A DNA stretch of 28,312 nucleotides from an uncultured Gammaproteobacteria bacterium (GTDB lineage: Bacteria; Patescibacteriota; Patescibacteriia; UBA2169), in the NCBI GenBank assembly GCA_964364395.1, contig CAYILY010000002.1, positions 1-28,312 on the forward strand. The letters run 5' to 3'. Below the pieces are notes generated by a model that searched no databases, had not been told where the DNA came from, and saw nothing but the letters and a program-made list of their open reading frames with translations. The translations under genes and the position numbers were made by a program. This document shows positions 2,091 to 26,597 of this stretch, one piece after another; position 1 is the first letter of the stretch, and every line of letters begins with the position of its first letter.

Positions 2091-2165
2091 GTCATTCTGG
2101 AGCGAAACGAAGTGGAGCGATAGAATCCATAATGGATCCTATCGGCCTACGGCCTCCAGGATGAC
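2091..2165. repeat. REP-like palindromic element
   Basis: Terminal inverted repeats GTCATTCTGGAG ... CTCCAGGATGAC with inner palindrome GATAGAATCC/GGATCCTATC; fills the atpF-atpH gap. Confidence 0.8.
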
Positions 2166-2174
2166 CATCCAAAT

Positions 2175-2564
2175 ATGAACAAATCAAGTCACAAAGCTTA
2201 TGGCCGCGCCTTGTATGAATTAACCTTAGATAAGCGCGCGGCGGGTTTAGAAAAAGCCATCAAGAATTTTGTGGCGCATTTGGCCAAAGCGCGGATGTTA
2301 AAGCAGGCCAGCGCGATAATCAGCGAGTTTACCCATTATGCCAAAGCCCAAGAGGGGATTGTGGAAATTCAAATCCAAAGCGCGCGTGAATTGCCGGCTG
2401 CGGCTCTCAATCAGGTAAAAAAAACTTTTGGAGAAAAAGTGGAGGCTGTGAGCGTTGTGGACGAATCATTGCTGGGCGGCGTGGTGATTAAGACAAAAGA
2501 CAGGATTTTAGACGGCAGTTTAAAAACGCAATTGCGTAATTTACAAGTAAAATTATCATCCTAA
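2175..2564 (+). CDS. atpH: F0F1 ATP synthase subunit delta (short, 129 aa)
   Basis: C-terminal VDESLLGGVVIK...ILDGSLKTQL motif and operon position. Confidence 0.92.
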   Translation: MNKSSHKAYGRALYELTLDKRAAGLEKAIKNFVAHLAKARMLKQASAIISEFTHYAKAQEGIVEIQIQSARELPAAALNQVKKTFGEKVEAVSVVDESLLGGVVIKTKDRILDGSLKTQLRNLQVKLSS

Positions 2565-2632
2565 AGTTTATTAGTTTAATAGTTGAATACTTAGAAAATT
2601 TTTAAACTATTAAACCAATAAACTATTAAACT
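2565..2632. repeat. Empty copy of the 8-mer-armed inverted-repeat element
   Basis: Left arm AGTTTATTAGTTTAATAGTT; right arm 2606-2632 ACTATTAAACCAATAAACTATTAAACT is the exact reverse complement of 4997-5023. Confidence 0.85.
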
Positions 2633-2637
2633 CTTTT

Positions 2638-4125
2638 ATGTCAATAAACACGATTGTTGAACAATTAAAAAAGCAAATCAGCGAATTCGAAAAAGCCGTT
2701 GAGGTTGAGGAGGTGGGCGCGGTAATCGAAGTCGGCGACGGCATTGCCAAACTCTCTGGCTTAACGCGCTGCCAATCCAATGAGATGTTGGAATTCCCCA
2801 ATAATACTTTTGGCGTCGCCCTCAATTTAGAAGAAGAAACCATTGGCGCCGTACTTTTGGGCGAATACGCCCATATTAAAGAAGGCGATACAGTTAAGCG
2901 CACGGGGCGTATTTTATCCGTGCCCGTGGGCGAAGAATTAATTGGCCGCGTGGTGAACCCATTAGGTTTGCCAATTGACGGACTAACTCCGATAAAGTCT
3001 AAAAAATTCTATCCGATTGAGCGCATTGCCCCGGGCGTTATGACCCGCGAGCCCGTTAGCCAGCCGGTGCAGACCGGCATTAAAGCCATTGATGCCATGA
3101 TCCCCATTGGCCGCGGCCAGCGTGAACTGATTATTGGCGATAGGCAGACCGGCAAAACCGCGGTGGCGATTGACGCCATTATCAACCAAAAAGGCCAGGA
3201 CATGATTTGCGTGTATGTGGCTATCGGCCAAAAAGAATCCAAAGTGGCGCGTTTGGTGGCTAAATTAAAAGAGACCGGGGCCATGGATTATACTATTATA
3301 GTATCAGCCGGCGCTTCGGATCCAGCTTCGCTTTTGTATATCGCGCCCTATGCCGGTGTGGCCATGGCGGAATATTTTATGGATCAGGGCAAAGACGTGC
3401 TGGTTATTTATGACGACTTATCCAAGCAAGCCTGGGCTTACCGCGAAATTTCGCTGCTTCTGCGCCGCCCGCCGGGCCGTGAAGCTTATCCGGGTGATGT
3501 GTTTTATTTGCACTCTCGTTTGCTGGAACGCGCTTGCCGCCGCAATCAGGAAGCGGGTGGCGGCTCCATCACGGCGTTGCCGATTATTGAAACCCAGTCC
3601 GGCGACGTGACGGCCTATATTCCGACTAATGTTATTTCCATTACTGATGGCCAAATTTTCCTGGAAACGGATTTATTTTATCGCGGCATCCGTCCGGCTT
3701 TGAACGTTGGTATTTCTGTCTCCCGTGTCGGTTCAGCGGCGCAGATTAAACCCATGAAAAAAGTGGCCGGCAAAATGAAACTGGCCATGGCCCAGTTCCG
3801 CGAAATGGAAGCTTTTGCCCAGTTCTCCAGCGACTTGGATCCGGAAACTAAAAAGCAGATTGATTTGGGCCAGCGCTTGGTGGAAATTTTAAAGCAACCC
3901 CAATTCCAACCCATGCCGGTAGCGAACCAGGTAGCGGTGATTTATGCCATCTCCAACGGCTATGCCAATAGCATCGCCGTAGCCGATATCCGCGACTGGG
4001 AAACCAAATTCCATGACCATATGAATAAAACCCATAAGCATTTATTAGACAAAATTGGCAAAGCTGAATGGGATGAAAAGATAGAGTCAGAATTAAAACA
4101 GGCCTGCCAGGATTATGCCGCTTAA
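2638..4125 (+). CDS. atpA: F0F1 ATP synthase subunit alpha
   Basis: GDRQTGKT Walker [24 protein letters not shown]. Confidence 0.99.
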
Positions 4126-4993
4126 TACTAAAACAATTAAGCGCCGCATCAAGTCCGTGGGTTCGACCAAAAAGATCACCAAAGCCATGGAAATGATTTC
4201 GGCCGTGAAAATGCGCAAGGCCGTGGCCAATGATTTAGCGAGCCGCGCCTACGCGAATTTAGCCTGGCAAATGCTTTCGGATATTGCCGCCAAAACTACC
4301 ATTGCCTATCATCCGCTTTTGGTGCGCCGGAGCGTGAAAACCATTGGTTTGATCCTTATTACTTCGAACCGCGGTTTGGCGGGCGGCTTCTCCAGCCGTT
4401 TGCTGGCCAAAGTTCATAATTATATAAAAAAAGTGGAAGAAGGCGGGGTAAAAAAGGTGGAAGTGATTTTAGTGGGCAAGCGCGGGCAAAAAATTTACCA
4501 GCGCTTTGGCCACCAAGTGGCGGCCGCCTGGCCGAAAATTGATTTAACCACCCGCGTCGAGGAAGTATTGCCGCTCTCGCAAATGGTGGTTAGCGAATAC
4601 ATTAACAAAAAATACGACAAAATCGTTTTGGCTTTTATGGATTTTGAATCAGCTTTAAAACAAACTCCGCGCCTTAAACAATTATTGCCCATTGTGCGCG
4701 CTAAACAGTTTGCGCGCGGCGAGGCTAAGCGCGACTTTGAATTTTTGTTTGAGCCCGGGCCCAAAGCGGCCTTGGAAGTGCTGGTGCCCCGCTTGGTGGA
4801 AATGCAGATTTACCAGGCCATTGTGGAATCCGACGCTTCCGAGTACTCGGCCCGCATGATGGCCATGGCCAATGCCACGGAGGCGGCGTCGGATATGATT
4901 ACAGAATTAAATTATATTTATAATAAAGCGCGGCAAGCGGCGATTACCCAAGAAATATCCGAGATTGTGGGTGGCGCTGCTGCATTAGAGTGA
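4115..4993 (+). CDS. atpG: F0F1 ATP synthase subunit gamma
   Basis: [13 protein letters not shown] and [12 protein letters not shown] motifs; 11-bp overlap with atpA. Confidence 0.98.
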
Positions 4994-4996
4994 AGA

Positions 4997-5442
4997 AGTT
5001 TAATAGTTTATTGGTTTAATAGTATGGAGGGAAACAAGTTTAGAGATTTTACGGAGTTGGATGTTTGGAAATTAGCGCATGAGTTGAGATTAAAAGTTTA
5101 TATTTTAGTGAGGTATTTGCCAAAAGACGAACAGTATAATATTGTCAGCCAAATTAAAAGATCTGCTGATTCAATTGGCGCTAATATAGCCGAAGGACAC
5201 GGAAGATTCCATTTTCAAGAAAATATACAGTTTTGCAGACAAGCGAGAGGTTCGTTAGAAGAAACAAGAGATCATTTGATTTTTATAAAAGATTCTCAAA
5301 TGATTAAGAAAGTTAGTAGTATTGAATATTTAATTGATATTTGTAATCAAATTAAATTTAAATTAAATGGTTATATTGGTTACTTAAAGAAGTGTAAGTT
5401 AGGAGACTAATAAACCAATAAACTTTTAAACTAATAAACTTC
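4997..5442 (+). mobile_element. Inverted-repeat-bounded unit carrying a four-helix-bundle gene, inserted between atpG and atpD
   Basis: 27-bp arms at 4997-5023 and 5406-5432 match 25/27 as inverted repeats, with a further 8-mer to 5442. The enclosed gene is AT-rich. Mobility is inferred from the empty copies; no transposase is present. Confidence 0.65.
5024..5410 (+). CDS. Four helix bundle protein (23S rRNA intervening-sequence protein / Avd-like family)
   Basis: F.DL.VW..AH....LP.DE.Y.....QIKRSA.SI.ANIAEG.GR....F...ARGSL.E motifs. Confidence 0.92.
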   Translation: MEGNKFRDFTELDVWKLAHELRLKVYILVRYLPKDEQYNIVSQIKRSADSIGANIAEGHGRFHFQENIQFCRQARGSLEETRDHLIFIKDSQMIKKVSSIEYLIDICNQIKFKLNGYIGYLKKCKLGD

Positions 5443-5445
5443 ATT

Positions 5446-25557: not shown

Positions 25558-25562
25558 AAGAT

Positions 25563-25670
25563 AGCGATCCGAATAAATCCGAATTACATCCGAATGCTCC
25601 GAATGAATACAAGACAGAATTAGCCTGGTATTCGGATAATTCGGATGCAATTCGTAGCATTCGGATCGCC
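25563..25670. repeat. ATCCGAAT-family palindromic element, long-spacer copy (108 bp)
   Basis: AGCGATCCGAAT...ATTCGGATCGCC; ends 6 nt before the secE ATG. Confidence 0.88.
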
Positions 25671-25676
25671 ATTTAT

Positions 25677-25865
25677 ATGAACCCTATCCTAAAATACCTC
25701 CAGGACTCCCGCCAAGAACTAAAAAAGGTCAGCTGGCCGTCGAAACAGGAAACCGTTAATTCTACGATTCTGGTGATTGCTTTTAGCGTAATTATCGCCT
25801 CGTTTTTAGGGGCCATAGATTACGGCTTGAATCGGTTATTGGAATTCTTATTGCAGAAGTTTTAA
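25677..25865 (+). CDS. secE: Preprotein translocase subunit SecE
   Basis: ELKKVSWPSKQE motif, single TM, upstream of nusG. Confidence 0.96.
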   Translation: MNPILKYLQDSRQELKKVSWPSKQETVNSTILVIAFSVIIASFLGAIDYGLNRLLEFLLQKF

Positions 25866-25867
25866 AA

Positions 25868-25952
25868 AGCGATCCGAATCTACGAATTGCATCCGAATGA
25901 CTCGAATAAAGATTCGGATAATTCGGATGCAATTCGGGTCATTCGTATCGCA
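25868..25952. repeat. ATCCGAAT-family palindromic element (85 bp)
   Basis: Near-identical to 13730-13814; fills the secE-nusG gap. Confidence 0.9.
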
Positions 25953-25959
25953 ATTATTT

Positions 25960-26505
25960 ATGTCTAAGCAAAATTTACAACAAGGCCGCCGCTGGTACGT
26001 GTTGCACACTTATTCCGGTTATGAAGAAAACGTGGCCCGCAACTTGAAACAGCGCATTGAATCGCTGGATATGGGCGATAAGATTTTTAATGTTTTGATC
26101 CCCACTGAAACGAAGATTAAAATCAAGAACGGCAAGCGCACCAATGTCACGGAAAAGATTTTCCCGGGCTATGTGCTGGTGGAAATGGTGGTGACCGACG
26201 ATTCTTGGTATGTGGTGCGCAACACGCCAAACGTGACCGGTTTTATTGGCGCCGGCACCACGCCCACCCCGATTTCCGAAGATGAAGTAAAATCTCTGCA
26301 AAAACGGATGGGCGTGCAAGAGCCGAAATTCAAAATTGATATTACGGTTAACCAGCCGGTGAAAATTACTGATGGGCCGTTCAAAGAATTCGAAGGCAAA
26401 GTTTCGGAAGTGGATGAAGCGCGCGGCAAGGTTAAAGTGCTGGTATCGATGTTTGGCCGCGAAACCCCGGTGGAATTGGATTTCTTACAGATAGAAAAGA
26501 TTTAA
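25960..26505 (+). CDS. nusG: Transcription termination/antitermination factor NusG
   Basis: [21 protein letters not shown] motif [15 protein letters not shown]. Start set to ATG 25960 because the longer ORF runs into the repeat. Confidence 0.98.
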
Positions 26506-26506
26506 C

Positions 26507-26597
26507 TGCGAATTATGCGAATGGGTGCGAATTCATGCGAATCGCGCCGCTTCTCATTCGCTTTCGCATTTATTCGTAATAATTAGCATAATTAGCA
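26507..26597. repeat. Divergent CGAAT-armed palindromic element (TGCGAAT variant)
   Basis: Four TGCGAAT units, a spacer, then ATTCGC/TTCGCA/ATTAGCA units; fills the nusG-rplK gap. Confidence 0.8.

Follow-up and report, generated by a model that had tools for sequence, protein, structure and literature searches.

Why do unrelated palindromic elements in a compact bacterial genome nearly all begin right behind one stop codon and end just before the next start codon? The question is raised by a stretch of 28,312 nucleotides (nt), referred to as the window (contig CAYILY010000002.1 of assembly GCA_964364395.1, positions 1 to 28,312), in which such elements lie between genes of conserved operons. 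A sequence-only reading of this stretch had proposed either that insertion is targeted to stop codons or ribosome-release points, or that the hairpins were retained as processing or translation-reinitiation spacers between cistrons. In this study, we found that the elements behave as mobile DNA that lands and persists at gene boundaries. The explanation that we put first, and to which we give about an even chance, is that directed insertion at gene ends, together with selection, has placed small palindrome-ended selfish elements of several families at these junctions, where they would be tolerated passengers.

The window is contig C2 of a genome of 768,920 bases in 103 contigs (47% G+C, 89% complete). 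The genome is labelled G000; C3, C15 and the like are its contigs, and L numbers are loci, mostly from relatives. The organism is an ultra-small groundwater bacterium (Patescibacteria), its sequence is present in groundwater metagenome DNA runs, and the homologues of the window proteins carry the names Patescibacteria or Komeilibacteria in their source records. Genes were called with our own dicodon model, which gave 865 genes covering 88% of the genome. Element edges were determined from repeat coverage, from regular expressions for the family termini and from folding of the spacer alone, and hairpin z-scores compare the fold energy with that of dinucleotide shuffles. Single-linkage clustering of the gaps lumped all families into one cluster, and clustering of the folded domains was only rough. 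Orthologous junctions were read in about 30 genomes from the organism's own family and class, and in a closer relative, L111.

Elements of the window and the empty junctions of relatives

When the edges were compared with the sequence, all ten listed left edges lay within -2 to +3 nt of a stop and all nine listed right edges lay 2-10 nt from the next ATG. The elements, with the nt between each edge and the neighbouring codon, are as follows.

2091..2165: family C hairpin (GTCATTC..GGATGAC), 2 nt past the atpF stop (TAG, 2086-2088) and 9 nt before the atpH ATG (2175); -35.6 kcal/mol, z -5.5
2565..2632: family A hairpin, 0 nt past the atpH stop (TAA, 2562-2564) and 5 nt before the atpA ATG (2638); -16.5 kcal/mol, z -4.6
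4997..5023: left arm of a family A cargo element, 3 nt after the atpG stop (TGA, 4991-4993)
5024..5410, + strand: gene for a predicted four-helix-bundle 23S rRNA intervening-sequence (IVS) protein (PF05635, E = 1.1e-31; TIGR02436, E = 2.7e-31)
5406..5442: right arm of the family A cargo element, including the stop of the cargo gene, 3 nt before the atpD ATG (5446)
6812..6889: family A hairpin, overlapping the atpD stop (TAG, 6811-6813) and 4 nt before the atpC ATG (6894); -16.8 kcal/mol, z -4.4
7317..7356: family D half-element (ACCTCACCC...), flush (0 nt) with the atpC stop (TAG, 7314-7316); pairing limited to a hairpin at 7329-7352
13267..13351: family B hairpin with AGCGAT..ATCGCT ends and arms of CCGAAT units, 33 nt past the helicase-nuclease stop (13231-13233) and 8 nt before an ATG at 13360; -30.4 kcal/mol, z -4.3
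13730..13814: family B hairpin whose first two bases finish a stop TAG (13729-13731), 10 nt before the pheS ATG (13825); -39.7 kcal/mol, z -7.6
17536..17570: short single-copy hairpin (one genome locus), flush (0 nt) with a stop (TAA, 17533-17535); -12.7 kcal/mol, z -2.6
25041..25086: family B solo left arm, 1 nt after the gyrB stop (TAG, 25037-25039), followed by a terminator-like hairpin
25563..25670: complete family B hairpin in the secE leader, 6 nt before the ATG (25677); -46.2 kcal/mol, z -6.7
25868..25952: family B hairpin, 2 nt past the secE stop (TAA, 25863-25865) and 7 nt before the nusG ATG (25960); -43.7 kcal/mol, z -7.8
26507..26597: family E hairpin, 1 nt past the nusG stop (TAA, 26503-26505) and 2 nt before the rplK ATG (26600); -31.9 kcal/mol, z -3.1

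Ten elements were folded and all were hairpins (z from -2.6 to -7.8). For the families of this window, the true ATG of the downstream gene lies 2-13 nt past the palindrome; in L111, atpB does not start at the ATG that lies within the family C end. The families had been taken to be four and unrelated. They are unrelated, but there are at least five of them (A, B, C, D and E), in addition to the single-copy hairpin. Family A has arms of GTTTAWTR 8-mers, family B has AGCGAT..ATCGCT ends with CCGAAT units in its arms, family C has GTCATYC..GRATGAC ends, family D is marked by ACCYCACCC..., and family E has arms of GCGAAT units, with a 10-nt period in the window copy and three loci in the genome. 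The arms of the family A cargo element (4997-5023 and 5406-5432) form an inverted repeat of 27 nt that is 93% complementary, and the PF05635 gene between them is the sole copy in the genome. In several unrelated families each arm consists of 7-10-nt units in tandem, with their mirror image in the other arm, as seen at 2565-2632, 13267-13351 and 26507-26597 in the window, at atpE-atpF in L111 and at nusG-rplK in L047. Intrinsic terminators, in which a T run follows a GC-rich stem, were ruled out as an identity for the elements: the stems are 60-150 nt long, and the sequence to their right is A-rich in family C or else a mixed A/T leader that continues into the next ATG.

Two placements required correction. 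The copy at 13267 does not start flush with a stop, and 25041..25670, previously read as a single element, consists of the solo left arm after gyrB and a separate complete hairpin before secE. Between the two lie the terminator-like hairpin, a minus-strand open reading frame (ORF) and a promoter-like site. As the gap that holds the secE hairpin is divergent, there is no upstream stop. A near-identical layout, in which a solo family B arm is followed by a terminator-like hairpin, stands after the stop of another gene at C16:6508. The minus-strand ORF (25139-25399, 86 amino acids (aa)) lies between the gyrB arm and the secE promoter region and has no Pfam or NCBIfam match. The promoter-like site, read by eye, is TTGCAT-17 nt-TATTAT at 25481-25510, upstream of the secE family B hairpin, which would therefore sit in a leader of about 160 nt.

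Orthologous gaps of only a few nt had been named by the sequence-only reading as part of what would speak against both of its proposals, and such gaps are what we found: where the junctions are empty, they measure -8 to +9 nt in about 30 relatives. By junction, the empty gap is -8 to +4 nt at atpF-atpH, 4-5 nt at atpH-atpA, -17 to +6 nt at atpA-atpG, 4-5 nt at atpG-atpD, 2-6 nt at atpD-atpC, 1-9 nt at secE-nusG (19 of 28 genomes) and 1-6 nt at nusG-rplK (eight relatives). The C- and N-termini of the flanking proteins are identical between filled and empty junctions. For example, the atpD C-terminus ..GGIDEVK* is the same in the window (80-nt gap), in L054 (73-nt gap with a different element) and in L055 (2-nt gap), and the NusG C-terminus ..DFLQ(I/V)EKI* is found across gaps of 1 to 262 nt. 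With an ancestral cistron spacing of about -8 to +9 nt, an element in a junction must start at the stop and end at the start if the proteins are to remain unchanged. Within operons, therefore, the closeness of the elements to both codons is mostly geometry.

The same few-nt junctions have been filled independently in relatives by different families. At nusG-rplK, about 14 of 26 genomes hold an element of another family. Family C occurs at atpF-atpH, atpH-atpA, nusG-rplK and atpG-atpD in four different genomes, and a AGCGATAC... element stands at nusG-rplK in a further one. Hairpins built of other units are present elsewhere in relatives, and a family C copy was seen inside the loop of a different hairpin.

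Strain variation and gene-carrying relatives

Presence and absence of the elements were observed between closely related strains. The 190 nt at 2447-2636 of the window correspond to 122 nt in a sister strain, and the 68-nt deficit is the exact length of the family A copy at 2565-2632. By gene coordinates, a contig with an 87% identical atpH has an atpH-atpA gap of 7 nt, yet retains an atpF-atpH gap of 86 nt. In a sister strain, 17 nt replace 17523-17582, including the hairpin at 17536, and 24 nt replace a 96-nt in-frame copy in pheT (16205-16300), an in-frame difference of 72 nt.

Longer forms with genes were also found. The genome has four small stand-alone GIY-YIG ORFs of 86-101 aa (PF01541, E = 1e-13 to 1e-18).

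G000:C3:2785-3078, - strand: GIY-YIG ORF
G000:C7:2792-3097, + strand: GIY-YIG ORF
G000:C25:1719-2009, + strand: GIY-YIG ORF
G000:C40:5987-6247, + strand: GIY-YIG ORF

Three of these four ORFs are enclosed by family C palindromic arms; for the remaining one, the last codons and the stop are supplied by a family D element. The window copy at 2091-2165 is identical in 66 of 75 nt to the joined arms of the element at C3:2785-3078, and its loop, ..ATCCA-TAA-TGGAT.., retains the stop codon of the lost GIY-YIG ORF. On these alignments, family C is the gene-less derivative of an element carrying a predicted GIY-YIG nuclease of about 100 aa. Family A arms also exist around the predicted 23S rRNA IVS protein gene, which gives at least two families with gene-carrying forms. 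Of the features that define a miniature inverted-repeat transposable element (MITE), those found were terminal inverted repeats, many dispersed copies, a longer coding relative with the same ends, and presence/absence variation between strains; no target-site duplication was readable at family B or C ends. Neither the GIY-YIG protein nor the PF05635 protein is a known transposase.

Placement across the genome and its possible causes

Self-comparison of the genome gave 27 kb of dispersed short repeats, or 3.5% of its length; the palindrome-ended elements measure 60-150 bp. Of about 300 repeat intervals obtained, 80 fall within called ORFs, 23 lie at the ends of contigs, and the rest occupy intergenic gaps, which are co-directional for 164 of them, convergent for 14 and divergent for 17. 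Family C has 63 copies. The lengths of co-directional gaps are bimodal: one class peaks at 0-10 nt, the other broadly at 70-200 nt. A repeat stands within 4-12 nt after the stop in 128 of 795 genes. Our gene caller missed rpmJ (37 aa, G000:C25 ~6238) and yidD (G000:C45 ~1040, - strand), each of which starts 8-9 nt past a palindromic element, so small genes adjoining elements are easily lost.

The preference for gene ends goes beyond geometry. Of the 164 elements in co-directional gaps, 81 were observed to start no more than 3 nt from the stop; sliding each element at random within its own gap predicted 50.9, and the maximum among 5000 simulation runs was 65. Where the residual length of the gap was no more than 30 nt, the stop was the nearer codon for 62 elements and the start for 17 (p = 3.6e-7). 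Where it exceeded 30 nt, 20 elements began within 3 nt of the stop, against 3.0 expected. The approximate density of elements per kb of residual spacer was 206 at 0-5 nt, about 8-27 at 5-50 nt and 0.6-3.5 beyond 50 nt.

The preference is one for gene ends generally, and not for stops alone. Convergent gaps contain no starts, and about 9-10 of their 14 elements stand flush with a stop; divergent gaps contain no stops, and about 8 of their 17 elements stand flush with a start. Family C is nearer and more regular to starts (mode 9-12 nt) than to stops. Family C flanks are always T|...|A and family B flanks are often WA|...|TW; a TA dinucleotide adjoins some but not all ends of family B and is absent from those of family C.

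Copies also occur inside genes. Family D palindromes stand in frame in the helicase-nuclease gene (12642-12662), in pheT (15681-15707 and 16208-16295) and in gyrB (24703-24757), none of them behind a stop. A 141-nt hairpin with arms of CCAATAA units is inserted into the helix 45 loop of the 23S rRNA gene (G000:C15:12643-12783; L001 ~2858-2998), the classical intervening-sequence site; this further dispersed family has more than 20 matches to intergenic copies. Insertion is thus not confined to gene ends, and these copies fit a selective filter. In three relatives (G014:C18, G030:C8 and G008:C69; L098, L100-L104), atpG matches as two pieces within one open frame, which suggests a possible in-frame insert of about 100 nt.

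The first of the earlier proposals, literal targeting of stop codons or ribosome-release points, is therefore retained only in part: the gene-end preference beyond geometry stands, but it is not specific to stops, because starts are also favoured and copies exist in frame and in rRNA, and nothing ties it to ribosome release. Literal targeting could claim the 128 genes with an element shortly after the stop, the convergent-gap elements flush to stops, an enrichment of TAG among genes with an element after the stop (30% versus 17.5%, p = 0.002), and the roughly 10 family B copies genome-wide that finish a TAG stop with their own first bases (TAG|CGAT), which account for that enrichment. The start-flush elements of divergent gaps, with no stop near, the family D copies inside ORFs and the regular spacing of family C to starts disagree with such targeting, and a DNA insertion step is unable to sense ribosome release. 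We regard literal targeting as highly improbable.

The second proposal, that the hairpins are retained for processing or reinitiation, concerns the structure left in the mRNA. The AT-rich starts lacking a Shine-Dalgarno (SD) sequence, on which it drew, were confirmed: the 16S rRNA ends in CCUCC, yet SD-like 4-mers precede 18.5% of starts, compared to 14% in coding controls; starts are rich in A/T, and position -1 is T in 69% of them. When the spacers of 113 filled junctions were folded alone, the median number of unpaired nt was 2 after the stop and 8 before the ATG; the unpaired stretch was the shorter one on the stop side in 82 spacers and the longer one in 27 (p = 1.3e-7). A functional hairpin would be one whose stem is cut by RNase III to separate the cistrons, in the manner of rRNA intervening sequences, or whose stop-flush stem is opened by the terminating ribosome, coupling translation to the next SD-less gene. 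The genome encodes RNase III and is SD-poor, structure begins 0-2 nt after the stop and spares about 8 nt ahead of the AUG, helix 45 houses a hairpin of a dispersed family, and one element carries the gene of a predicted IVS protein. In addition, Escherichia coli repetitive extragenic palindromic (REP) elements within 15 nt of a stop are reported to affect translation (PMC12306157, citing its reference 17).

The distribution of the elements does not support such a role. They are lineage-specific: the junctions are empty in most relatives, sister strains differ, and one junction can be filled by different families. Both element orientations occur, and sense versus antisense fold stability was 63 versus 72, without bias; this equality argues against selection on the RNA fold. 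There was also no correlation between leader length and stem strength, measured as the GC of the closing pairs. Retention for function is accordingly a reading that we consider improbable.

The order of magnitude of the density excess, about 20-fold, and the repeated hits on targets of 1-6 nt led us to put directed insertion with selection first. The gene-end excess would arise from insertion directed to AT-rich stop and start contexts, probably begun by an element-encoded or trans-acting nuclease. Selection would then set the polarity. As nothing is needed after a stop, structure could start 0-2 nt behind it, and an SD-less start would need an open A/U-rich leader, leaving about 8 nt unpaired before the AUG. 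The hairpins would be passengers that the mRNA tolerates, not parts that the operons need.

The main alternative is that there is no targeting: insertion would occur anywhere, and copies would survive only at permissive sites, namely junctions, positions after stops, rRNA helix tips and in-frame loops. Small ancestral gaps and selection for an open leader would then account for all distances. We consider this possible, although doubtful. Several observations weigh against our preferred explanation. No target-site duplication or target motif is readable at family B or C ends, and for that reason directed insertion is something that we infer. The canonical transposases Y1_Tnp (PF01797), DDE_3 and TnpB were undetected in the 89%-complete genome. 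The copies in frame and in helix 45 fit untargeted insertion with selection equally well, as do copies nested in the loops of other elements, the tiny empty gaps and the untouched protein ends. Placement is common to unrelated families, for which a family-blind selective filter is simpler than shared targeting. Since rpmJ and yidD were missed, some apparently large gaps are truly tight junctions, which makes the density figures approximate. With about 8 nt left unpaired ahead of the ATG, the leader exceeds what an empty gap holds; its composition depends on the family (T-rich after B, A/C-rich after C), and together these hint that the leader travels with the element. Finally, the orientation of family C relative to transcription is 24:6, a bias that a pure passenger model does not predict. 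This bias also stands against the absence of targeting, as do the independent hits on the same 1-6-nt junctions in many lineages and the density at stop-flush versus other non-coding positions: with an excess of at least about 20-fold, fewer than about 5% of other intergenic positions would have to be tolerant.

Surroundings, known systems and meaning

The first part of the window carries atpB-E-F-H-A-G, the four-helix-bundle gene and atpD-C. These are followed by a UvrD/PD-(D/E)XK helicase-nuclease gene, a small unknown gene, pheS, pheT, a second small unknown gene and a Na/Ca exchanger gene, and the last part comprises gyrB with an intein, secE, nusG and rplK. The intein (PF14890) occupies residues 446-872 of gyrB (21677-25039). 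Rfam and tRNA scans of the window gave no match. Two stretches, 8339-10136 and 18958-21130, look accessory. Coverage there falls or disappears in sister-strain runs, and they hold repeats of their own, namely three double palindromes of about 76 bp and one duplicated 254-nt unit.

We compared the elements with known systems. Nearest in form are Correia-type MITEs. The Correia elements of Neisseria (Correia repeat enclosed elements, CREE, or Neisseria miniature insertion sequences, NEMIS) are about 100 bp long, with terminal inverted repeats, a TA target duplication and a single sequence family; such MITEs are, as here, many-copy hairpins of about 100 bp, gene-adjacent, co-transcribed and strain-variable. 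In contrast, the present elements belong to at least five unrelated families, several with tandem-unit arms, that fill 1-6-nt junctions of core operons; no duplication is readable, and what the gene-carrying relatives encode is a GIY-YIG nuclease or an IVS protein instead of a transposase. The transcribed hairpins of Correia elements are cut by RNase III, the gene for which is present in this genome. For the cargo copy at 4997-5442, a long stem around a four-helix-bundle gene, the nearest likeness is a 23S IVS with a PF05635 ORF. Intervening sequences of 23S rRNA are inserted at the tips of helices 9, 25 or 45, whereas the window copies lie in mRNA operon spacers and most have no ORF; the copy in 23S helix 45 is a separate one. 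Rickettsia palindromic elements, which are tolerated in coding genes, resemble the in-frame copies. The likeness is limited to family D, and the main finding concerns intergenic junction copies.

Integron attC sites are imperfect palindromes that extend from a stop to the next ORF and are recognised by structure more than by sequence. The present elements resemble them in spanning from the stop of one ORF to shortly before the next. An attC identity was rejected on the grounds that the neighbours here are not mobile cassettes but core operon genes, whose order is conserved and whose junctions are empty in relatives, no integrase search having been made; no attC core sites were seen by eye at the elements. 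The seg genes of phage T4, which encode GIY-YIG homing endonucleases, are small selfish nuclease genes between conserved genes that they leave undisturbed. Here, by comparison, only the catalytic domain of about 100 aa is present, inside long inverted repeats and with dozens of gene-less copies.

Nearest in placement after stops are the REP elements of E. coli, extragenic palindromes inside operons. In E. coli and other Proteobacteria, many REP elements and bacterial interspersed mosaic elements (BIMEs) lie within 15-20 nt past a stop and inside operons, and stop-proximal copies are reported to stall terminating ribosomes (PMC12306157, citing its reference 17). REPs measure 20-40 nt, bear a GTAG or CGTC head and are linked to REP-associated tyrosine (RAYT, Y1) transposases (PMC3733652). 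The present elements are 60-150 nt long, lack a GTAG/CGTC head and are tied to start codons as well, and no Y1_Tnp gene was found in this genome at 89% completeness. None of the systems compared combines unrelated families, tandem-unit arms, exact filling of core-operon junctions and GIY-YIG or IVS-protein parents, and searches of the literature gave no description of such elements in Patescibacteria. A bolder reading, which we hold to be unlikely, is that they form an undescribed Patescibacteria class of nuclease-borne palindromes that home to the stop-start junction and leave the operon in working order: with the stem starting at the stop, the terminating ribosome would melt its base, a short element-borne leader would present the next AUG in an organism that makes little use of SD pairing, and the rRNA copies would be excisable intervening sequences.

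These results have consequences for annotation. Start codons are easily mis-set inside the elements; for nusG, our own caller chose 25927, whereas the gene begins at 25960. Within operons of the Candidate Phyla Radiation (CPR), gaps of 70-150 nt are not to be taken for promoters or regulatory leaders. For all its heavy streamlining, the genome holds 3.5% of selfish hairpins, sited where neither neighbouring protein is touched. About one gene in six has a strong stem no more than 12 nt from its stop, and the next start lacks an SD sequence; these junctions offer a natural test bed for translation restart across structured junctions. The occurrence in one genome of the GIY-YIG nuclease of about 100 aa, the IVS protein, the hairpins at mRNA junctions and the rRNA intervening sequence suggests that elements described separately until now may share one common lifestyle.

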